Positions 769 through 41,900 of a DNA stretch of 41,900 nt are shown here, one piece after another. The notes beneath the pieces are model-generated. The model was not told where the DNA came from. It ran no database searches and saw only the letters and a list, made by a program, of their open reading frames with translations. Numbering within the stretch: position 1 is the first letter of the stretch; each line of letters opens with the position of its first letter. Made by a program: the position numbers and the translations under genes. Where the stretch lies: positions 1 through 41,900 of the forward strand of contig JAUSOZ010000031.1 of the NCBI GenBank assembly GCA_030655955.1. Reading direction: 5' to 3'. Origin of the DNA: Deltaproteobacteria bacterium (lineage in GTDB: Bacteria; Desulfobacterota; Desulfobaccia; Desulfobaccales; 0-14-0-80-60-11).

Positions 769-1923
769 TTACCGCACATCCTCTTGCATTTGCCTGAGTT
801 TACCGGTGGGAAATTGCATATTATCCAATAATGGGTAAAGATCTTGATAGATAATCTCAGCAACCTTCTGGCATCCGGTATTGCTAAAATGATAAGTATC
901 GTAATAATATTCCGTTATTTTTGGCATCTCTCTTGCCAAATCAATAAGCTCTACTTGATGTTGAGCTGCAATATTTCTCACAACATCATTGTAAAGCTCT
1001 AAAATCTGCCATAAAACTTTGCCATTCCAATTATGTGTGTTTGCTCTGGCAAGGTTTATTCCGGTAGTCTGGTCAACGAGATCACCGAAGACCGTTGGTT
1101 GAGTAATTAGTACTGGTTTTATTGAATTAAGCCGGCAAATATCCATAAGTCTGTTTAACCGCTCTGCGTATGGGGCAAGGTATTTTTGTTTATGCTCAAG
1201 TATTATCGGGATAACTTTCTCTGTAGGTATATCAGATTGATTTACTTCGTTAAAATTCCACAACGTATGAATCAACCCCCTCCTTTTGGCCTTAAAGAAT
1301 CGGCAGAAGTTGATGCTATAGTTCAACACCTCACTTTTGTCGACTAAGTAATTAAACAACGGTTCAACTAAACCGGTAAATGGTTTTTTAAGCTGTTCTT
1401 TGTCATAAATACGTGAGGTCTCCAAGCCAATGTCATTGGCACCCACAAGAAATAGCACAACCTTTGGTCGTATTCTTATTATATAATCTTCCATTAAAAC
1501 TATATGCCCATAAGTTGAGTGGCCATCCAGACCGGCATTATTCAGCCATAATGACTTAAATTTGCTTTTTAATTTGACAGCTAAAATATCACACCAGGTT
1601 TTGTGGTCAGAAATTAACTCACATGCCGTCGTGCTGCCACCAACAGCAATGATAGTTAAATATTCAGCAAAGTTTTTCGGAGGGGGCTCACCCCTGAACC
1701 CCATATGGTTCCGGGTGGTATAGACAATCTTGTCCAGCTTGTCGGTTTTATCATTGGTGATCTGATATTTTCTATCTTGCGGTAACCAGATTTTATTCCC
1801 TCTAACCCGGTACTCGATGGGTTGAAAGATCCTGAGCAGGCCCTCCAATAAGATAAATGATAGTACAAGGCCAATAACTACGGCCAAAATGTGTTTTAAT
1901 AGTACCTTACTCACGATTCGCAC
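769..1923 (-). CDS. SGNH/GDSL hydrolase family protein with N-terminal membrane anchor
   Basis: Blocks VGGSTT, NAGLDG, LVGANDI, DTYH; N-terminal hydrophobic helix; AT-rich relative to flanks. Confidence 0.8.
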   Translation of the reverse strand: MRIVSKVLLKHILAVVIGLVLSFILLEGLLRIFQPIEYRVRGNKIWLPQDRKYQITNDKTDKLDKIVYTTRNHMGFRGEPPPKNFAEYLTIIAVGGSTTACELISDHKTWCDILAVKLKSKFKSLWLNNAGLDGHSTYGHIVLMEDYIIRIRPKVVLFLVGANDIGLETSRIYDKEQLKKPFTGLVEPLFNYLVDKSEVLNYSINFCRFFKAKRRGLIHTLWNFNEVNQSDIPTEKVIPIILEHKQKYLAPYAERLNRLMDICRLNSIKPVLITQPTVFGDLVDQTTGINLARANTHNWNGKVLWQILELYNDVVRNIAAQHQVELIDLAREMPKITEYYYDTYHFSNTGCQKVAEIIYQDLYPLLDNMQFPTGKLRQMQEDVR

Positions 1924-15655: not shown

Positions 15656-15910
15656 AGCTGTCAGCTATCAGCGATCAGCTGTCAGCCAAGATAAAGCACT
15701 ATGGCCGTTTGGGGTCACCCCCAATCATGAAATTCCTTGTAGGGGCGGTTCGCGAACCGCCCCTACGGGTGGACTTTCACGATAAAGCAAGGAATGTTAG
15801 ATTGCGCCATGATTACTTTATTCGGCGGGCAGTGCCCGCCCTAGAGGTTCAGGTCGAGTTTCAATAATTTTTGGCTTTTGCTGAAAGCTGACCGCTGATA
15901 GCTGACAGCT
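15656..15910. repeat. Inverted heptamer arrays (15656-15686 and 15880-15910) bracketing the spacer
   Basis: 29 of 31 positions complementary; encloses a 28-bp perfect palindrome at 15739-15766. Confidence 0.85.
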
Positions 15911-15928
15911 ATTCAAAGGGAGACACCC

Positions 15929-16771
15929 ATGATGGCCAAGGCCCGGCTGGGGCGCATTGCCTATCTCAACGTGCTGCCCATCTATTTTGCCATGGAAAAC
16001 ATTTTTGGCGAAAACGGTTTCCACCTGGTACGGGGTACCCCGGCGGAACTCAACGCCTTGATGCGCCGGGGCGAGATGGACCTGGGCTCTATTTCCGCCC
16101 TGGAGTATGGGCGGGCTTTTCGAGATTATCTGCTCCTGCCCGACCTGTCCATCAGCGCCACGGGGGCGGTGGGCAGCGTGCTCCTGTTCAGCCGGGTGCC
16201 GTTTTCCCGGCTGGACGGGCGCCTCATCCGGGTCAGCGCCGCCTCGGCCAGCGGCGCCGCCCTGGTCAAAGTCCTGATGGCCGAACTCTTTGAGGTGGCC
16301 CCCCGTTACCAGCCGGGTCAACTGGCGGGCGTGCCCCTGGGGGACGTAGCCGCGGTCATGGCTATCGGCGACGAGGCCCTGCGCCTCTCCGCCGCGGGAA
16401 CCATGCCCTTCGAACTGGACCTGGGGCAGGCCTGGCAGGAACTCACCGGGCTGCCCTTTGTGTTCGGGGTTTGGGCGGTGCGCCGGGACTTTGCCGCCGC
16501 CGCGCCCGAGATCACCGACTCTCTGCACCGGCTGCTGCTGCGGTCCCGGGATTGGGGCCTGGGGTCTTTACCGGAGTTGAGCCGCATCGCCGCGGCCCAC
16601 TTCGGCATGACCCCGGCCCGGATTCTGGCGTATTTTCGTCAGCTCAACTACTCCCTGGACCCGGAACACGAGGAAGGTCTGGCTACTTTTTTCAATTATT
16701 TGTATAACCTGGGAGAAATGCCGGAAGAACCGCAACTTAATTATTTTGGGCCAAGACAAGTAGGCAGTTAG
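15929..16771 (+). CDS. mqnA: Chorismate dehydratase
   Basis: GRIAYLN.LP, PAELN, SI...GAV.SV.L.S, IGD.AL, DLG..W..LTGLPFVF..W. Confidence 0.88.
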   Translation: MMAKARLGRIAYLNVLPIYFAMENIFGENGFHLVRGTPAELNALMRRGEMDLGSISALEYGRAFRDYLLLPDLSISATGAVGSVLLFSRVPFSRLDGRLIRVSAASASGAALVKVLMAELFEVAPRYQPGQLAGVPLGDVAAVMAIGDEALRLSAAGTMPFELDLGQAWQELTGLPFVFGVWAVRRDFAAAAPEITDSLHRLLLRSRDWGLGSLPELSRIAAAHFGMTPARILAYFRQLNYSLDPEHEEGLATFFNYLYNLGEMPEEPQLNYFGPRQVGS

Positions 16772-16906
16772 CTTTTGTTATCGGGATTTTGGGTTATGGT
16801 GCGTGGGACGCACCCTACGGAGACAGCCGCTACCTGACTTTTGGCCTTTAAACCAAAAGTTGACCGCTGATAGCTGAAAGCTGACCGCTTCTCCGAAGGA
16901 GAATAC

Positions 16907-18352
16907 ATGGGTTATCGGAATTTGCAGGAATTCATTACCCGCCTGGAGCAGGCTGGGGAGTTGGTGCGCATCAAGGAGCCGGTGAGCCCGTATCTGACGA
17001 TTACCGAAATCACCGACCGGGTCTCCAAGGCCGGCGGCCCGGCCCTGTTGTTCGAAGCGGTGCCGGGCTATGACATGCCGGTGCTGATGAACGCCTTCGG
17101 GTCCATGCGGCGTATGTGCCTGGCGTTGGAGGTTGCGTCCCTGGATGACATCGCCACCGACCTCCTGAGCTTCATGGAGGCGGAAGCCAACACCCTGATG
17201 AAAAAGCTCAAGCTCATTCCCAAGCTGGCCCGCCTGGGCCGGATGTTCCCCAAAGAGGTGTCCAAGGCGCCGTGCCAGGAGGTTATCCTCAGAGGCGAGG
17301 ACGCGGACCTGACCAAGATCCCGGTCCTGACCTGCTGGCCCGGGGACGGCGGCCCCTTCATCACCCTGCCGGTGGTGTTTACCCATCACCCGGAGACCGG
17401 GAAGCGCAACGTGGGCATGTACCGCCTCCAGGTTTATGACGCCCGGACCACCGGCATGCACTGGCACGCCCACAAGGGCGGGGCCCAGCATTACCGGATC
17501 GCGGAGTCCCGGGGCGAGGCGCTGCCGGTGGCGGTGGCCATCGGGCCCGACCCCGCTGTGACCTATGCGGCCACCGCCCCGCTGCCGGAAGATATTGACG
17601 AGATTCTCTTTGCCGGGTTCCTTAGGGGAGAACCGGTGGAAATGGTGCCGTGCGTCACCCAGCCTTTGAGTGTGCCGGCGGCATCCCAGATCGTCCTGGA
17701 AGGTTACGTGGCGCCGGGGGAGAAGCGGGTGGAAGGCCCGTTCGGCGACCACACCGGCTATTACTCCCTGGCGGATGACTACCCGGTGTTCCATCTCACC
17801 GCCATCACCCGGAGGCGGGACGCCGTTTATCCGGCCACCATCGTGGGGCGCCCCCCCATGGAAGACTGTTTCATGGCCAAGGCTACGGAGCGCATCTTCT
17901 TCCCCCTGATGCAAAAAACCCTGCCGGAGATGGTGGACATGAACCTGCCGGTGGAGGGGGTCTTCCACAACCTGGCCTTTATCTCCATCGACAAACGCTA
18001 TCCCGGCCACGCCCGCAAGGTGATGCACGCCATCTGGGGCATGGGGCAGATGATGTTCACCAAGATCATTATTATTTTCGACAAGGAAATTGACGTGCAG
18101 GACCTGTCCCAGGTGCTGTGGCGCTTAGGGAACAACGTCGACCCGCGCCGGGACGTGGTGTTCGCCGATGGGCCGGTGGATGCCCTGGACCATGCCTCGC
18201 CCCTGCCCCGCTACGGCTCCAAGATGGGGATCGACGCCACCCGGAAATGGCCCGAGGAAGGGTTCACCCGGCCCTGGCCCGAAGTGATCCACATGGACCC
18301 GGAAATCAAGCGCCAGGTGGATGAGCTCTGGCCGCGCCTGGGGCTGGCATGA
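16907..18352 (+). CDS. ubiD: UbiD-family menaquinone biosynthesis decarboxylase (MqnL-type)
   Basis: GGPALLFE, WP.DGGPFIT, N.GMYR.Q, EGPFGDHTGYY, VGRPPMED, GSKMGIDAT. Confidence 0.9.
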   Translation: MGYRNLQEFITRLEQAGELVRIKEPVSPYLTITEITDRVSKAGGPALLFEAVPGYDMPVLMNAFGSMRRMCLALEVASLDDIATDLLSFMEAEANTLMKKLKLIPKLARLGRMFPKEVSKAPCQEVILRGEDADLTKIPVLTCWPGDGGPFITLPVVFTHHPETGKRNVGMYRLQVYDARTTGMHWHAHKGGAQHYRIAESRGEALPVAVAIGPDPAVTYAATAPLPEDIDEILFAGFLRGEPVEMVPCVTQPLSVPAASQIVLEGYVAPGEKRVEGPFGDHTGYYSLADDYPVFHLTAITRRRDAVYPATIVGRPPMEDCFMAKATERIFFPLMQKTLPEMVDMNLPVEGVFHNLAFISIDKRYPGHARKVMHAIWGMGQMMFTKIIIIFDKEIDVQDLSQVLWRLGNNVDPRRDVVFADGPVDALDHASPLPRYGSKMGIDATRKWPEEGFTRPWPEVIHMDPEIKRQVDELWPRLGLA

Positions 18353-18909
18353 ATCGCTACGTGGTGGCCATCACCGGGGCCTCGGGCATGATCTACGCCC
18401 GGGAACTGCTGGCCTATTTCGCCGGCCGCCCGGACCTGGAATTGCACGCCGTGATCTCCGGGGCCGGGGAGCAGGTGTTGGGCCTGGAGTTGGGGACCAC
18501 CCCGGCGGCTCTGGCTCCCGGGGCCATCTGGCACCGGGTGGACGACTTCACTTCGGGCCTGGCCAGCGGCTCGTTTCGGGCCCGGGCCATGGTGGTGATC
18601 CCCTGCTCCATGGGATCGCTGGGGGCCATCGCCACCGGGGTGGGCCGCAACCTGATCCACCGGGCTGGGGAGGTCTTTCTGAAAGAGCGGCGGCCCTTGA
18701 TCCTGGTGGTGCGGGAGACGCCTTTGAGCCTCATCCACTTGCGGAACCTGGCCCGGGCGGCGGAGGCGGGGGCCACCATTTTTCCGGCCTGCCCCGGGTT
18801 CTATCACCGGCCCCAGAATCTGGATGAACTGGCCCGCCAGTTTGCCGGGCGCGTCCTGGATCACCTGAGGCTTTCGCATCACCTGACCCGGCGCTGGGGC
18901 GAGGGTTGA
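18349..18909 (+). CDS. ubiX: Flavin prenyltransferase
   Basis: AITGASG, ASGS, PCSM, RA..V.LKE.R.L....RETP, P.FY; ATGA overlap with ubiD. Confidence 0.92.
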   Translation: MNRYVVAITGASGMIYARELLAYFAGRPDLELHAVISGAGEQVLGLELGTTPAALAPGAIWHRVDDFTSGLASGSFRARAMVVIPCSMGSLGAIATGVGRNLIHRAGEVFLKERRPLILVVRETPLSLIHLRNLARAAEAGATIFPACPGFYHRPQNLDELARQFAGRVLDHLRLSHHLTRRWGEG

Positions 18910-18945
18910 CCCGGGGAAAACTCGCACCTACCGGAGGGAGCTTCT

Positions 18946-19452
18946 ATGCTCTGGTATCTTTACCTGGCGGCCGTGGTGGTGGCGACCTGCCTCCATCTGT
19001 GGCTGGGAAAGCGGCCGGTCTCGGCCAGCCGGTGCGTCGAAGCGCTGCTGCTCAACCTGCTGGTATTTTTTGTGGGGCTGGGGGGACTGGTGGGCTTCTT
19101 GGGGCACACCTTCAAGGCCCGGGAAATCGCCCTGAAGATCGGCTGGCAACCGAGCCCCTTCCAGTTTGAAGTAGCCGTGGCCAACCTGGCCTTCGGCGTC
19201 CTGGGAATTATGTGCATCTGGCAGCGGCGGGGCTTCCGAACGGCCACCGGCATCGGGTTTGCCATCTTCCTGCTGGGGTGCGCCTACGGGCACGTCCGGG
19301 ATATGACCCTGCACGGCAATTTTTCGCCGTATAACGTCGGCCCGGTGCTCTGGGTCAATGACCTGGCTGTTCCCGTGGTTATTCTGCTCTTGCTCCTGGT
19401 GCGGCGTCATCTGGCTTTAACCCAGGCTGCAACCCCGGAGTCCAACCACTAA
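18946..19452 (+). CDS. Uncharacterised multi-TM membrane protein (resembles DUF6790)
   Basis: Several hydrophobic helices; IGW..SPFQ.EVA.ANL..G motif; GGAGGGAG RBS. Confidence 0.65.
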   Translation: MLWYLYLAAVVVATCLHLWLGKRPVSASRCVEALLLNLLVFFVGLGGLVGFLGHTFKAREIALKIGWQPSPFQFEVAVANLAFGVLGIMCIWQRRGFRTATGIGFAIFLLGCAYGHVRDMTLHGNFSPYNVGPVLWVNDLAVPVVILLLLLVRRHLALTQAATPESNH

Positions 19453-35883: not shown

Positions 35884-36414
35884 TTACAGCGGCTGGACCC
35901 AGATGGCCTGGGGGCCCTGGTCCCCGGCCTCCTGGGTGAATTTCACTGGCGTGCCCGGCGTCAGGTGGCTGAACTTGCCTTTCTTTACCGCGTGGGCGTG
36001 GAAGTAGACCTCCAGGCCCTCGTCGCTTTCGATAAAGCCGTAGTCGTCATCCAGGAAAAGACGCACCACCCTCCCCCGTTGGGCAACTTCTTCGTGGGTT
36101 TTGATTTGCTGTTGGACAACCTGTGAGTGCTCGGCCAAGCGGCGGTCCAGGACGTCAAAAGCCTCCGAGGTCAGAGGAATGACCATTTCGCCCTGCCGCA
36201 TTATGGTGATGGTGTCTCCGGGGATGGAGACCACCAGGTGGACCTCGAAGGCCCCGAGCCGGTGGTGGGCCGTGCCGATGATTTCCACCCGGGCGTGGAG
36301 GATGGGGTCGTGATAGTGTTTCTGCAGGCGGGCCAGTTCTTCCTCAATCTTTTCCCGCCACTCGGGCAGGATTTCCAGATTACGGCCTTCAATATGAACA
36401 TCCTGGGGCAGCAT
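35884..36414 (-). CDS. HPF/RaiA ribosome-associated domain fused to a cold-shock domain
   Basis: N-terminal S30EA-like region, C-terminal YGFI...G.EVYFH....GP.A; AGGAGG RBS. Confidence 0.8.
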   Translation of the reverse strand: MLPQDVHIEGRNLEILPEWREKIEEELARLQKHYHDPILHARVEIIGTAHHRLGAFEVHLVVSIPGDTITIMRQGEMVIPLTSEAFDVLDRRLAEHSQVVQQQIKTHEEVAQRGRVVRLFLDDDYGFIESDEGLEVYFHAHAVKKGKFSHLTPGTPVKFTQEAGDQGPQAIWVQPL

Positions 36415-36545
36415 CGAGCACCTCCTGTGGAATACGCAACTCATTAATTATTAAGAGTTGAAACCGTGCTTGTCAATCGGCGTCCGCTTATCAGGACGGG
36501 TGGCGGGGTCAGGGTGTCGAGGGGGAGAAGGGGAGATGTCTGGGG

Positions 36546-37421
36546 TTACTGCGTGCCGATGAAGAACGGGCGGAAGGTGGACTCGTCCTGGCACAGGGCC
36601 CGGCGCAGGGCCTCGAGCATGGCGTCCCGGTCCTCGGGCAGCCGGCCATTGATGTCGAGATAGTTGGTGTAGTGGTCGCTGGTAACCTGCGTGGGCGTCG
36701 TGATCTGCGACAGAAGAGTCATGGTTTCTGTGAGCGCCTGATGCGGGCTAAGCATCTGAAACCGCCCAGCCTGGACGTCGGCCAGCAAGGGGGTGTTGAC
36801 CTTGGGGACGAAGGTCCTGAGGCGCACCACCGCCGGATGCATATCGCTAATGACCCGGGCGGTTTCCCGGGCGTGGGTCTCGGAACGGTCCTGGCCGCCG
36901 ATTCCCACCATGACGTAGGCGTTGATCTTCAGGTCCGCGGCCCGGGCCATGTGGCCCGCCCGGATGTGGTCCTGGGCGGTAGCGCCTTTTTTGATTCGGG
37001 TCAGGATGACGTCGTCGCCGGATTCCACCCCGACGTGAATCCGCCCCAACCCGGCCTGGGCCAGGGTCTGAAGCTGATCCGGACCTTTGCGGTGGATGTA
37101 CTGGGACGAACCGTAGACCGTGATCCGCTCCAACCGGGGAAAGAAGGTGTAGCTGTAACGGCAGATTGCTGCCAGGGCCGCGGTCGGCATGGCGATGGTG
37201 TTGCCGGCGGGGAAAAACAGGGTGCGCACCCGGGCGCCATAAGTTGCCGCGGCATCAATCAGGTCGGCCTTGATCTCAGAGACCGGCCTCACCTTGAACT
37301 TCACGCCGTCTTTATAAACCATGCAAAAGGTGCAGAGGTTGTGGGGGCAACCCACGGTGGCCTGGACGAGCAGGCTGTCGGCTTCACTGGGGGGCCGGTA
37401 AATGGGGCCGTCGTAGCGCAT
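36546..37421 (-). CDS. Uncharacterised radical SAM protein
   Basis: YDGP.YRPPSEA.S, GCPHNLCTFC.., G.ESG.D.IL..IKKG, SDH..NY. Confidence 0.85.
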   Translation of the reverse strand: MRYDGPIYRPPSEADSLLVQATVGCPHNLCTFCMVYKDGVKFKVRPVSEIKADLIDAAATYGARVRTLFFPAGNTIAMPTAALAAICRYSYTFFPRLERITVYGSSQYIHRKGPDQLQTLAQAGLGRIHVGVESGDDVILTRIKKGATAQDHIRAGHMARAADLKINAYVMVGIGGQDRSETHARETARVISDMHPAVVRLRTFVPKVNTPLLADVQAGRFQMLSPHQALTETMTLLSQITTPTQVTSDHYTNYLDINGRLPEDRDAMLEALRRALCQDESTFRPFFIGTQ

Positions 37422-37636
37422 GGAGAGGTGCCGGGGGCGTAGGGGCGGTTCGCGAACCGCCCCTACGGTCGAAGTCATAGTTATGTATATTATAACACAT
37501 CCTGGGAGAGACCACCGCAGTGACCGGCAACGACGCCGATTCCCGCAGGCCGGCCCGGCCCTGATTATGTACTGGGCAGGGCTGGGGATTAATGGTAGTA
37601 TGTCTGTGTCTAAACCAAGTTAGGTGCAAGCAATAC

Positions 37637-38911
37637 GTGGGAGCCAGGCACGAATCCATCATCTGTCCCGGTTGCGGCTGCCTCTGTGACGACCTGGATG
37701 TCACCGTCGACGGGGACCGGATTGTCGAGGTCAGCAATGTCTGCCTCTGGGGCGTGAGCCGCTTTTTCCACGCCAAAAAATTTCATCCCAAGAAAGAGCG
37801 TCACCGCCTGCGTGAGCCCGTGGTCCGTCATCGAGGGCGCCGGGAGACGGTGCCGTATGAGGCAGCCCTGGCGGAGGCGGCCCAGGTGCTGAGCCGGGCC
37901 CGCCGGCCGATCATCTAGGGGCTGACCAATTCCGGTTCCTGGGCCCAGGAAGCGGCCCTGAAACTGGCCTGCAGTTTACGAGCCCGGCTGGAACCGGCGG
38001 ATCTGGCCTTCAAGGCCCCCTACTACCAGAGCATCCAAGAGCACGGCCTGGCCTGGGCCCCCCTGGAGGTCATCCGGGATGAGGCCGACACGGTGCTGTT
38101 CTGGGGCGCCAATCCCATCCACTCCGCCCCCCGGCACGTGGTGCGCTACGCCGTCTTTGCCCGGGGCCGCTTCACCGAACGGGGTATTGAAGACCGGCAG
38201 ATGGCGGCGGTGGACATCTACCCCACCGAGCTGGCCCGGTTCTGCCCTCTGTTTATCAAGATCAACCCCGGGCAGGAAGTGGATCTGGTTGCCGGAGTCG
38301 CGGCCATCCTGGCCGGGGAGCCGCCGCCCGACCCCGTGGTCCGGGGCACCCGGCGGCTGGCCAAATTTCTGGCCGCTGCCTCCTGTGGAGTCATTTTTTG
38401 CGGCCGGGGGGTCAGTTATGGCCCGGGCCTGGAACTGTTTGACCGGCTGGCCCGCCTGGTGGCACTGCTCAATCAGCAGGCGAGGTTTTTCCTGTTTCCC
38501 CTGTCCGGCGACTTCAACTCCAACGGGCTGTACCATCTGCTGCTCAATGAGACGGGCCAGGCCGGGGCGCCGGATTTCGGGACGGGGGAGGTGGTGACCC
38601 ACTACACCCCGATGGATTTCCGGGAGGTGGACGCGGTCTTGGTCGCCGGGGCGGATTTATTGTGGTTTTTGCCGGACGAACAGGTGGAGGATCTGAAGCG
38701 CCGCCGGGTGCCGATCGTGGCCTTGAGCCCGTTTGCCAACCGGACCACCGGCCAGGCCGCGGTTATCTTGCCCACGGCCCTGGCCGGCATTGAGACGGCC
38801 GAGGTGGCCTATCGGATGGATGGGTTGCCCCTGGTCCTGAAGCAGCTGGTGGACTCGGCGCTGCCTCCGGACCACCAGGTGCTCACGGACCTGCAGCGGT
38901 TGATCGGGTGA
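37637..38911 (+). pseudogene. Formylmethanofuran dehydrogenase subunit B-like gene interrupted by in-frame TAG at 37916-37918 (pseudogene, sequence error or recoding)
   Basis: ORFs 37592 and 38093 share a frame; CPGCGCLCDD..C, RPII*G, D..LFWG.NP.H..PRH..RY, G.E.....YRMDG.P; GTG start with AGGTG RBS. Confidence 0.75.
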
Positions 38912-39104
38912 TTCAGGTTTGGGACTGGTGGCGACTGGCGATCAACCAAATGATTCCCGTAGGGGCGGACCTGTGTGTCCGCCCTCTTTGAGGCTGCACG
39001 CGCCAATACGCTCCTACGGCGTATCTTGATAGATTGATATGTTGCAAATAGATACCCTAAAGCTGATCGTGGGTTGCTGATCAGAGACCCGGGAGCACCG
39101 CACC

Positions 39105-40478
39105 ATGCGCCTTAAAATTGCCGGGGGACGCCTGTATGATCCAACCTGCGGCTTAGACGGTGAGGCCGGCGACCTCTACGTCGAAGACGGGCGGCTGGTG
39201 GCCCCGCTCCCCGAGGTGGACCGGGAGATCGAGGCCCGGGGTCAGATAGTGACGCCGGCGGGAATTGAGCTCCGGGGTCAGGTGGCCACCTACGGCCTCA
39301 ACTTTTTGCGTTTAACCGACGGGGCGCCTTCTCTCCGGGAATTGGGGGAGAGCTATGCCCTCCTGGGATATACCCATGTGCACGAGCCCTTTTTGACGGG
39401 CTTAACCGCGGGCTACGTCCAGCGCCAGCTGGCGGGCCTGCCCGTGGTGGACACCTCCGCCTCCCTGGTCCTCAACCTGCGGGAACTCGACCAGTGGCTG
39501 CGGTTTCCGGAGCTTCTTCCCGAAGTGGGGCAAACCCTCTTATATCTGCTGGACGAGACCCGGGCCCTCAATTTCCGGGTGGTGGAGCCCTTTGTCCGGT
39601 ACCGGCAGGGTTTTTACGCCCATCGCACCATCGAACCGGAGCCAACCCTGGAGATATTGGCCCACCTGTCCCGGATCACCGGGGCGCCCCTGTCCGTGGA
39701 GGCCTCCCCTGAGGTGCTGCGGGCCCGCCTGCCGGAGCCTGGGGCCTTTCATCTGGCCGCCCTGGGCCCGGCGCTGACGGCCGATGACCTGGTGGAGGCC
39801 GCCCTGGCCCATCTGGAGGCGGGGGCCACGGGGGACCTGGGGCTCATGCTCCCCGGACGAAAGAATGGGCCGACCCGGCTGCCGGTCCGGATAGACCTGG
39901 GGTGGTTCCGCTCCCTGGACCTCAACCCGGCGTTGGATGAGGCCGCAGGCCGGCGGGCCCTGGCCCTGGCCCTGTGCTGCCAGGGTTCCCAGGCAGCCTT
40001 TTCCGGGGCCGGGATGGCCCAGGCGCCGGTGAGCGAATACCCCCGGATGTTCTCCTGGCTGTGGGACCACGCCGCCCGCCGGCAGGATTGGCATGATGAC
40101 CTGGGGGCGCGGCGCTATTCGCTGTCGGACTGGGTCTGGGCCACCCGGGCCCTGCCCGCCCGGCTGCTGGGCCTTGAGGACCGGGGCCGTCTGAGCTTGG
40201 GCGCCCGGGCCGACGTGGCTATCTATGACGTGCCGGCGTACGCCCCCCCCGGCCAGTGGCACCATTACCTGGGCCGCTGCCGCACCCTGCTCAAGGCCGG
40301 GGAAGTCGTGGTGGACAACTTTAGCCTGGTAAATCCCGAGGCGCCCCGGGCCACGTATTACCGGCAAACCGGGGCCGAGGCCACCCCTATGCTGGCGGAA
40401 ATTTGCCAGTTCCAGAGTTTGCGCCGGGAAAACCTCTGGGTTAAGGAAGGTCTGGGCGGACCCTGGGTGGGAGTTTAG
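39105..40478 (+). CDS. Formylmethanofuran dehydrogenase subunit A-like amidohydrolase fold, metal ligands degenerate
   Basis: GG.LYDP..G.DG...D..V.DG, P.GI, GYT, TRA.PAR.LGL.DRG.L..GA.ADVAIYD, LK.GEVV. Confidence 0.75.
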   Translation: MRLKIAGGRLYDPTCGLDGEAGDLYVEDGRLVAPLPEVDREIEARGQIVTPAGIELRGQVATYGLNFLRLTDGAPSLRELGESYALLGYTHVHEPFLTGLTAGYVQRQLAGLPVVDTSASLVLNLRELDQWLRFPELLPEVGQTLLYLLDETRALNFRVVEPFVRYRQGFYAHRTIEPEPTLEILAHLSRITGAPLSVEASPEVLRARLPEPGAFHLAALGPALTADDLVEAALAHLEAGATGDLGLMLPGRKNGPTRLPVRIDLGWFRSLDLNPALDEAAGRRALALALCCQGSQAAFSGAGMAQAPVSEYPRMFSWLWDHAARRQDWHDDLGARRYSLSDWVWATRALPARLLGLEDRGRLSLGARADVAIYDVPAYAPPGQWHHYLGRCRTLLKAGEVVVDNFSLVNPEAPRATYYRQTGAEATPMLAEICQFQSLRRENLWVKEGLGGPWVGV

Positions 40479-40482
40479 AAAC

Positions 40483-40520
40483 AGGTTTTAGGTTTTAGGT
40501 TCTGGGTTCTGGGTTTTGGG
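40483..40520 (+). repeat. (RGGTTYT)n heptamer array after fwdA-like stop
   Basis: AGGTTTT AGGTTTT AGGTTCT GGGTTCT GGGTTTT GGG; same unit as 23257. Confidence 0.8.
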
Positions 40521-40603
40521 TTATTTGAGAGTGGGATTATGAAGTAATTATTCCCCGGAGGGTTCGATTGGTGGCACTAACAATAGGGCAAATGGCGTAA
40601 GGT

Positions 40604-41053
40604 ATGGCCACGGCAGAAGAACTCCTGGAATTTTTGCCCGGCACCGATTGCCGGCAGTGCGGCTTCATCTGCGCCGAGTTTGCCGGGTTGCTTCTGGCCC
40701 GGGAACGGCCGCCGGAGGACTGCCCGGTCCTCCATGAGCCCGACTATGCCGGGTTTATCGAGGCCTTGCACGAACTCCTGGGACCTTCGGCTTCGGCGGC
40801 GGGGATGCGCATCGACCCGGAAAAATGCAACGGCTGCGGCATCTGCGTGGCCATGTGCGAATTCCACCTGGGAAACTGTGATGCGGCCCGGCTGGGCAAG
40901 GGGCCCCGGCCCCAGGACCAGATGGTCTTCCACGTGGTCAACGGCACGGTGGTGGTGGTCCGCCAGGAACTGTGCACCCGGTTGGTCCAGGCGGCGGAGA
41001 AGTGCAGCAAGTGCGCCCAGTACTGCCCCACCGAGGCCATTGAGTTGTTTTGA
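40604..41053 (+). CDS. Fe-S protein: N-terminal RnfB/AcsC-type Fe-S domain plus ferredoxin domain
   Basis: LPGTDCRQCG..C..FA...CP; CNGCGICVAMC; CSKCAQYCP. Confidence 0.8.
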   Translation: MATAEELLEFLPGTDCRQCGFICAEFAGLLLARERPPEDCPVLHEPDYAGFIEALHELLGPSASAAGMRIDPEKCNGCGICVAMCEFHLGNCDAARLGKGPRPQDQMVFHVVNGTVVVVRQELCTRLVQAAEKCSKCAQYCPTEAIELF

Positions 41054-41164
41054 TCAGCAGTTAGCGGTTAGCAGTTAGTAACCCTATTGAACTGATAAAT
41101 TTATTGCGCCTGGATAGTGCTCATGATTTTTTTTTATGGCTAATAGCTAACTGCTAACAGCTGA
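41054..41164. repeat. Inverted (GCRGTTA)n heptamer arrays bracketing the spacer before hdrC
   Basis: 41054-41078 vs 41140-41164: 21 of 25 Watson-Crick plus 2 G-U. Confidence 0.8.
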
Positions 41165-41173
41165 AGGCTAAAT

Positions 41174-41641
41174 ATGACCGAAACCGTAAACCTTCAGGAT
41201 TTGGATCCCCATTTCAAAGATGAGGTGGCCACCGAGCCCGGTTGTCAGCACCTTTGGCGCTGCTTTGCCTGCGGGGTCTGTACCGCCACCTGCCCGGTAA
41301 GCGAAATCACGCCCGGCTTCAGCCCCAGCCAGATCATCCGCCAGGTGCTTTACGGCCAGCGAGCGGCCCTGCTGGGTTCTTCGGCCCTTTGGCATTGCGC
41401 CCGCTGCGCCCGGTGCTCCTTTCAGTGCCCCCAGGACGTGCGTTTTCTGGATATCATCCAGGGTCTGAGAAATCTGGCCCTGCGGGACGGCTGCATCAGC
41501 CCGGCCCGGGTGGCCCGGTTGGAGCAGGGGGAGCGGCTGATCCAGGAACTGAGGCGGCGCCTCATCGGCGAACTCCTGTCCGGGGAGGAAGAGTCGGAGG
41601 TGAAAGACGCCCTGGCCCGGCTAGCCGGTGAGGTAGAATAG
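41174..41641 (+). CDS. hdrC: Heterodisulfide reductase subunit C-like protein
   Basis: CFACGVCTATCP, P.QIIR....G, LW.C..C..C...CPQDV. Confidence 0.85.
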   Translation: MTETVNLQDLDPHFKDEVATEPGCQHLWRCFACGVCTATCPVSEITPGFSPSQIIRQVLYGQRAALLGSSALWHCARCARCSFQCPQDVRFLDIIQGLRNLALRDGCISPARVARLEQGERLIQELRRRLIGELLSGEEESEVKDALARLAGEVE

Positions 41642-41665
41642 CCTGGGTGTTGTTCATGGCAGTCA

Positions 41666-41839
41666 TTCATGGGCCGTCGGTCCACCCATAAATGATGAAA
41701 AGTTCGTAGGGCGGGCGTCTCGCCCGCCGCTTTAGTCCGCACAGGCGAGACGCCTGTGCCACCAAATTCTTATTAATTTTTCAAGACAGCCTGAAATCTG
41801 TTTGAGCCTCGTAAGGGCGACCCGCCGGGTCGCCCCTAC
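41666..41839. repeat. REP-like hairpin cluster after hdrC
   Basis: GTAGGGCGGGCG..CGCCCGCC, GCACAGGC..GCCTGTGCCACC, GTAAGGGCGACCC..GGGTCGCCCCTAC. Confidence 0.75.
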
Positions 41840-41900
41840 CAGAACACCTCACTATGGAGTCGATTTCTTCCATCCATGAATAGCCCGGCAACAGTATTTT

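Follow-up and report, generated by a model that had tools for sequence, protein, structure and literature searches.

The 41,900-nucleotide contig JAUSOZ010000031.1 of the Deltaproteobacteria bacterium assembly GCA_030655955.1 (Desulfobaccales), analyzed here at its full length and called the window, raises the question of what a bacterium retains genes for that resemble subunits B and A of formylmethanofuran dehydrogenase (FwdB and FwdA), when both predicted proteins have lost their catalytic metal sites. Four genes, all on the forward strand, occupied positions 37637 to 41641, as a first-pass annotation made from the sequence alone had described: an FwdB-like gene with a GTG start (positions 37637 to 38911), an FwdA-like gene encoding a 457-amino-acid (aa) protein of amidohydrolase fold (39105 to 40478), a gene for a 149-aa iron-sulfur (FeS) protein (40604 to 41053), and a gene for a 155-aa HdrC-like protein (41174 to 41641). 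These four open a conserved Desulfobaccales operon of seven genes, which continues with a 1,017-aa double HdrA of the HdrA2 type, a DUF3795 gene, and an FwdF-like polyferredoxin gene. The favored answer, held with slightly better than even confidence, is that the operon encodes a complex derived in bacteria from the plan of the Hdr-Fmd/Fwd supercomplex, its disarmed B/A pair acting as an iron-sulfur relay or as a docking scaffold for an HdrA-type flavoprotein. The gene set probably moves electrons and does not fix CO2.

Loss of metal ligands in the FwdB-like and FwdA-like proteins

In FwdB, the active-site histidine and arginine (His119 and Arg288) have a catalytic role. Read through an in-frame TAG that is considered below, the FwdB-like protein matched TIGR03129 with 291.2 bits, under the curated equivalog cutoff of 327.8 bits (the pieces on either side of the TAG scored 73.3 and 202.8 bits), and aligned with the solved M. 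wolfeii FwdB (5t5i_B) at an E value of 1.8e-61 and approximately 40% identity. In the HMMER alignment to that structure, F125 and K126 occupied the positions of Cys118 and His119, S290 and D292 occupied those of Arg288 and His290, and the N-terminal [4Fe-4S] motif (C10, C13, C17, and C36) was retained, which bears out the loss of the Cys site and the retention of the cluster motif that had been read by eye. The column of the W/Mo ligand held Cys in all 11 archaeal FwdB proteins compared (from five genomes) and in none of the 31 bacterial B-like proteins; in a comparison of 21 B-like proteins, it was found in 0/21. The four cluster cysteines were invariant in all of these sets (B-like, 31/31 and 21/21; FwdB, 11/11).

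The FwdA-like protein scored 102.9 bits against TIGR03121, for which the curated cutoff is 392.75, and was shorter than typical FwdA, as had been noted (457 aa versus 548 to 571 aa in solved FwdA/FhcA). The formylmethanofuran dehydrogenases studied share, without exception, four His residues, one Asp, and one carboxylysine, according to the available portion of PMC11656701. In alignments to 5t5i_A and 6s6y_A, R57 and Q59 occupied the HxH positions (His57 and His59), R158 occupied the carboxylysine position (Lys178), and A302 occupied the position of Asp385. Aligning the protein by MAFFT with 52 long FwdA/FhcA-type sequences gave the same picture and showed H216 as the only His ligand kept, the two middle His ligands being placed in a poorly aligned stretch. 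Across 21 aligned Desulfobaccales A-like proteins, His57, His59, and Lys158 were each found in 0/21 and Asp302 in 1/21. Foldseek searches with the AlphaFold model of the A-like protein (pLDDT, 73.8; pTM, 0.76) placed FhcA, FwdA, and FmdA at ranks 1 to 8 (TMq, 0.77 to 0.81; E values down to 6.9e-27); next in rank were metal-free CRMPs, and the matches after the first eight had an E value of 1.5e-14. As judged by these alignments to solved structures, the losses in both the B-like and the A-like proteins are real.

Public sources automatically name the A-like protein “formylmethanofuran dehydrogenase subunit A,” a label from which one would mistakenly infer that sulfate reducers have methanofuran-dependent C1 metabolism. 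The name speaks for a working formylmethanofuran dehydrogenase or an Fhc-type formyltransferase/hydrolase. With both proteins below the curated cutoffs, the defining ligands absent, and no FwdC, FwdD, or Ftr found in the 97.7%-complete genome, such an enzyme is practically out of the question. The first-pass annotation had seen no fwdC or fwdD; indeed, no FwdC/FhcC was present in the window or above the cutoff in the genome, Ftr (PF01913) had no match in the genome, and no FwdD was found in the window or operon. A clear stand-alone FwdD-like domain was likewise not found in the genome, where seven of the eight PF01568 matches lay within open frames of 541 to 971 aa and the other fell in a frame of 141 aa with which a contig begins.

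Gene order, selection, and an in-frame TAG

The window is an entire contig (C232) of an assembly of 323 contigs, and its end falls within the operon; an intergenic tail (positions 41642 to 41900, forward strand) runs from the HdrC-like gene to the contig end, and the operon resumes on other contigs. In relatives, the HdrC-like gene was followed by a double HdrA of approximately 1,017 aa, DUF3795, and the FwdF-like polyferredoxin. In the genome of the window, contig C102 carried the double HdrA from its base 3 onward, whereas the end of contig C278 held DUF3795 together with the polyferredoxin. Of the genes that might have lain past position 41900, the operon included hdrA but neither fwdC nor fwdD, and no HdrB/CCG-domain gene was among the operon genes annotated in four relatives (L021, L029, L030, and L031). 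An HdrB is present elsewhere in the genome of the window, beside another HdrA paralog.

The A-like gene was found in 43 of 61 related genomes (30/36 in family f1, 12/14 in family f2, and 0/10 in ten other families) and in 40 of 401 genomes of a phylum-wide sample. Identity among the matching related genomes was 47 to 94% across two families, and 37 of the 43 carried a single intact full-length frame. The operon is also present in G039, a genome that consists of one contig. Homologs with the same neighborhood were collected, and the order B-A-FeS-HdrC was fixed in all 20 fetched loci; the double HdrA and DUF3795 followed in 19 (the 20th was cut by a contig end), and the polyferredoxin came next in 15. 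Median pairwise ratios of nonsynonymous to synonymous substitution rates (dN/dS; NG86) were 0.22 for the A-like gene, 0.21 for the B-like gene, and 0.17 for both the FeS and HdrC-like genes, well below 1; bioF, used as a control from the same loci, also had a median of 0.17. As estimated from these coding sequences, the gene set is maintained by purifying selection in Desulfobaccales. In some Desulfobaccales, the B-like gene was separated from the A-like gene by one for a cyclophilin-type peptidyl-prolyl isomerase (L030:7879-8406 and L031:9999-10574), and in another locus a 1.7-kb stretch lay in this place (L025:6332-8007).

A decaying operon had been offered as one of two explanations. Functionless, drifting remnants of an archaeal Fwd/Hdr cluster gained by horizontal transfer would fit the loss of every catalytic ligand from both subunits, the stop codon in this copy, and the split or stop-containing A-like matches in 6 of the 43 genomes (G002, G005, G014, G027, G031, and G049). 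However, frames were intact across the two families (B-like frames in 19/19 relatives), gene order was constant, many residues were invariant, and dN/dS values near 0.2 matched those of the housekeeping control. Because of the intact frames, the fixed order, and the low dN/dS, the family is not considered to be decaying, and such drift is highly improbable. Decay is conceivable only for the copy in the window, owing to its TAG.

The TAG had been overlooked in the first-pass annotation, which took the B-like gene as one open frame. It lies at positions 37916 to 37918 (forward strand; codon 94 as the assembly reads) and divides the gene into 93 and 330 codons. The corresponding codon was TAT or TAC (Tyr) in 19/19 relatives, the residue is Tyr in solved FwdB, and the TAG was private to this low-coverage assembly; the B-like gene was intact in all 19 relatives. 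In the sequencing run that best represented the stretch (X1; pieces 100% identical, depth 3 to 6), contigs ended at position 37909 and resumed at position 37919, leaving the site uncovered, and the three other runs covering the site (X2, X5, and X15) all read T at position 37918. Because the X1 contigs break at the site and the other three runs read T, the TAG most likely arose through misassembly at low coverage or represents a rare variant of the strain; it is not a property of the family.

That the TAG truly knocks out the FwdB-like gene here, as a recent strain-level pseudogene with the rest of the operon intact, is possible but doubtful. The assembly itself reads TAG, and a private difference nearby (A at position 37910 versus C elsewhere) suggests a distinct variant over a single random error. 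A knockout also agrees with the coding properties of the genome, in which no PylS scored above the cutoff, no CUA anticodon was present among the 42 tRNAs found, and TAG terminated 316 of 1,497 long open frames; the same observations, together with the Tyr codon of all relatives, do not support a pyrrolysine reading. On the other hand, X1 contigs left positions 37910 to 37918 uncovered and broke on both sides, as at a low-coverage bubble or error, T was read by 3/3 other runs, and the frame past the TAG stayed open, with 95% identity to the closest relative and a dN/dS of 0.25.

Other readings of the codon were rejected. Selenocysteine is irrelevant at this position, as the stop is TAG. The organism does use selenocysteine, judging by three formate-dehydrogenase-like genes with one in-frame TGA each (contigs C94, C100, and C273) together with a tRNA-Sec. 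Recoding conserved across relatives was ruled out by the TAT or TAC codons of the relatives, and an apparent one-codon gap was an artifact of splitting the query at the stop. Contigs from the RNA library of run X15 covered parts of the B-like gene at 92 to 100% likeness; contigs cannot show transcription, and therefore nothing was drawn from them.

Ligand-intact relatives and the proposed role of the operon

A profile search of 1.8 billion representatives revealed a distinct family of short A-like proteins (approximately 450 to 500 aa), apart from FwdA/FhcA of 500 to 590 aa, and part of these short forms retained HxH, Lys, and Asp. The genomic loci of the ligand-intact short forms fell into three groups. 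In a sister clade of other deltaproteobacterial metagenome-assembled genomes (MAGs), the genes encoded polyferredoxin, HdrA, HdrA, FeS, a B-like protein without the Cys, and a ligand-intact A-like protein, and CdhA-like and CdhB-like CO dehydrogenase genes lay directly after the A-like gene in four loci (L061, L062, L068, and L069; for example, L069:10927-13940 and 15776-18948), with tandem duplicates in L068 and L069. The archaeal-type CdhA-like protein of this clade scored approximately 540 bits against TIGR00314 (cutoff, 781.3) and had no match in the genome of the window at an E value of 1e-8. One Syntrophobacteria MAG (L093) had the exact gene order of the window with the A-like H, H, K, and D in place. 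Finally, MAGs of ANME-1 (Methanophagales), Alkanophaga, and Methanoxibalbensis (L071 to L104; for example, L083:9001-10386) had, besides their normal Fwd genes, a single isolated gene for a short FwdA-like protein whose HxH, Lys, and Asp were intact. Neither B-like nor Hdr genes adjoined these lone archaeal genes, and their neighbors varied (chemotaxis genes, PheRS, and AglB); as a functional lead they were set aside, as nothing was gained from them. Since the sister clade and L093 retain the A ligands, the sequences indicate a stepwise loss: all through the bacterial family, the B subunit is disarmed, whereas loss of the A site was confined to the Desulfobaccales branch and came after the operon had reached its present form.

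The FeS protein matched PF04060 and Fer4 and combined an N-terminal RnfB/CFeSP-type cluster domain (C16, C19, C23, and C40) with a 2x[4Fe-4S] ferredoxin domain. The translation of the HdrC-like gene contained two CxxCxxCxxxCP motifs and scored 69 bits against TIGR03290 (cutoff, 160). The double HdrA comprised two fused HdrA-type FAD/pyridine-nucleotide-disulfide domains and several Fe-S motifs, and its frame on contig C102 scored 853.5 bits against HdrA2 (NF040770; cutoff, 1100). For the 280-aa polyferredoxin, the top NCBIfam match was FwdF, at 80.7 bits versus a cutoff of 375. At least eight giant HdrA paralogs were present in the genome of the window, and others of these adjoined MetF/MetV/MvhD, HdrB/C, or NuoF-like genes. 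Because these paralogs sit beside varied partner genes, HdrA modules with exchangeable partners are usual in this organism. One of them, on contig C251 (L056:2808-10235), forms an HdrA-linked methylene-tetrahydrofolate reductase module in the order MetF, 1,484-aa HdrA-like, MvhD, MetV, MetF.

A complex of the B-like and FeS proteins was predicted from the sequences of the closest relative, L037. The prediction reached an ipSAE of 0.87, compared with 0.03 for the best control; in the benchmark, the ipSAE mark was attained by 58 of 80 solved complexes and by 2 of 110 mismatched pairs. Runs agreed in at least 88% of contacts, with partner pLDDT of at least 81, and the modeled interface placed B residues 31 to 40, around cluster residue Cys36, against FeS residues 76 to 84, at the first ferredoxin cluster motif. 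The ferredoxin domain of the FeS protein is thus predicted to dock at the cluster of the B-like protein; as ferredoxin-to-FwdB/Fdh contacts have already been solved, the score may reflect likeness to known complexes.

From these parts we infer a soluble iron-sulfur flavoprotein complex formed by the operon products. The retained [4Fe-4S] cluster of the B-like protein would exchange electrons with the docked ferredoxin domain, and an Fe-S wire would lead from the B cluster through the FeS protein to the HdrC-like protein and polyferredoxin and on to the flavins of HdrA. The B/A pair would then be a relay and structural platform and neither a CO2 reductase nor a formyl-methanofuran-condensing enzyme. 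A repurposed scaffold or electron transfer module feeding an Hdr complex, as first suggested, is consistent with the conserved operon, the purifying selection, and the predicted docking, which leave the function itself a matter of inference.

Several observations weigh against this relay or scaffold. The end-sites of the Hdr-Fwd path are missing (the W/Mo ligand in B, FwdD, FwdC, the Zn2 site in A, and HdrB), and without a known end-site a relay remains incomplete as a mechanism. At least 12 polar residues outside the old ligand set are invariant in the A-like proteins, and the B-like proteins agree with the majority of archaeal FwdB at 66 of the 94 columns (70%) conserved in the latter. Both exceed what a mere scaffold might require and could be signs of a new site or of a cofactor that has been retained. 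The ligand-intact A-like relatives, in the sister clade with CdhA/CdhB-like genes and in L093, imply that the ancestral module was probably an enzyme. The A-like model is only moderately confident, the old active-site loops (58 to 72 and 162 to 174) falling under 50 pLDDT, and split or stop-containing A-like matches occur in the six genomes listed above.

Several of these points could instead reflect a neofunctionalized enzyme, somewhat unlikely on balance, in which the B/A pair would catalyze a reaction at a remodeled A-like pocket or at the former pterin pocket of the B-like protein; the latter pocket may contain a pterin that the protein does not ligate or a different cofactor, and HdrA-type bifurcation would supply low-potential electrons. 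In its favor are the invariant A-like residues (H91, H93, D116, S118, S120, N124, R126, R167, Q168, R174, H216, and D244; 21/21 each), the closeness of the B-like protein to FwdB in comparison with pterin-free FhcB, which was barely detectable from it (E value, 0.0043), dN/dS values as low as those of bioF, and the occurrence of ligand-intact relatives in the same operon type. However, the old metal positions were variable within the order (R/G/C at 57, Q/R/S/P at 59, and A/C/G/D/M/L at 302), and the old Cys position of the B-like proteins differed between clades (F/L versus L/V), the departures of these proteins from FwdB-conserved columns falling on active-site motifs. H91, D116, and S118 are family marks and no replacement site, since they are also kept in the ligand-intact short forms. 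No FwdD-like capping domain was found, and in Fhc the lack of a D subunit accompanies loss of the B-subunit metallopterin, as described in the accessible part of PMC11656701.

A related view, rated unlikely, is that the operon descends from an archaeal Hdr-Fwd system and runs an undescribed reaction. Electrons bifurcated by the double HdrA would reach the FwdB-like/FwdA-like pair through the HdrC-like, RnfB-type, and FwdF-like proteins, where a substrate from the acetyl-CoA pathway used by acetate-oxidizing sulfate reducers would be acted on by a cofactor without a Cys ligand or by the polar pocket of the A-like protein, remodeled and strictly conserved. If so, the sister-clade link to CdhA/CdhB would point to CO/CO2 chemistry.

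The flanks of the operon and the rest of the window contained further features. A radical SAM gene (positions 36546 to 37478, reverse strand) was divergent from the FwdB-like gene; of the 20 fetched loci, 9 had this arrangement, and these were all from close relatives (75 to 93% identical). In two loci of the sister clade, L068 and L069, distant radical SAM homologs (approximately 29% identity) occurred within a few kilobases of the A-like gene. A 186-aa protein in which a ribosome-hibernation (S30AE/HPF) domain is fused to a cold-shock domain (35884 to 36444, reverse strand) was encoded beside the operon, and this position was conserved within the genus. At the contig start, a gene for a GDSL-type lipase/acylhydrolase (769 to 1923, reverse strand) lay in a stretch of 44% G+C, versus approximately 62 to 66% elsewhere in the window, and may be acquired DNA. 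A scan of the window against Rfam gave nothing at gathering scores.

Comparison with known systems

No published account of the operon, or of a ligand-free FwdA/FwdB pair with Hdr in bacteria, was found in a search that covered sources other than supplements and subscription journals, and the operon is not mentioned in the accessible parts of PMC9012536 and PMC7082340. The closest described systems are the Hdr-Fmd/Fwd supercomplexes of methanogens, in which HdrA, HdrC, polyferredoxin, FwdB, and FwdA occur together (PDB 7bkb, 9sfi, and 9sw6; PMC13580544, as far as its text was available). FwdABCDFG/FmdABCDF and HdrABC structures served as references (PDB 5t5i, 8rja, 7bkb, 9sfi, and 9sw6). The operon shares with them the folds of the B and A subunits, the N-terminal [4Fe-4S] cluster of B, a polyferredoxin nearest to FwdF, HdrA- and HdrC-type partners encoded in one operon, and the predicted docking of ferredoxin at the B cluster. 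In contrast, its B subunit lacks the Cys/Sec ligand, His, and Arg, and its A subunit lacks HxH, the carboxylysine, and Asp and is approximately 110 aa shorter. FwdC, FwdD, and HdrB are absent from the operon, HdrA is a fused double protein of 1,017 aa, and the host is a bacterium without Ftr. The parts list of a CO2-fixing methanogen supercomplex thus appears to have been taken over by bacteria and kept under selection after the loss of both catalytic metal centers.

The B subunit of the methylotroph complex FhcABCD, FhcB, is not known to have an N-terminal Fe-S domain. FhcABCD (PDB 6s6y) is also a bacterial Fwd derivative with no D subunit and with a B subunit that has no metallopterin, according to the portion of PMC11656701 available, and FhcA was the top fold match of the A-like model. 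The two systems differ in that FhcA is active with its metal ligands, whereas the A subunit of the operon is disarmed as well; that FhcB has diverged far, whereas the B-like protein is near FwdB and keeps the cluster motif; and that the operon lacks FhcC and FhcD (Ftr) and has Hdr-type partners. The contrast drawn at the outset with Fhc, in which the B site is lost and A is active, was therefore correct, and the sister clade and L093, with their A ligands, add weight to it.

HdrA-based flavoprotein complexes are a route by which many strict anaerobes make or use electrons of very low potential, and to our knowledge, the partners of most bacterial HdrA-based complexes have not been identified. 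The operon resembles MetFV-HdrABC-MvhD and FlxABCD-HdrABC in having a giant HdrA-type flavoprotein with Fe-S partners; a recognizable catalytic partner is present in those systems, whereas the operon has only the disarmed Fwd pair.

Subunits that have fallen silent and been retained as structural parts are known from other complexes. The C-terminal molybdopterin-fold domain of NuoG/Nqo3 in complex I is one; silent amidohydrolase relatives kept structurally include CRMP/DPYSL proteins and, in the aspartate transcarbamoylase of Pseudomonas, an inactive DHOase-like subunit. By analogy, the B-like protein may resemble NuoG/Nqo3 as a Mo-bisPGD fold that still holds an Fe-S cluster without the cofactor, and the A-like protein may resemble the DHOase-like subunit and CRMP as an amidohydrolase fold without metal ligands that is kept for assembly. 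Sequence kinship to these systems exists only at the superfamily level, and the analogy is one of function. The living relatives of the operon offer a natural series for asking what a subunit of molybdopterin or amidohydrolase fold contributes to such a complex once its chemistry is gone.

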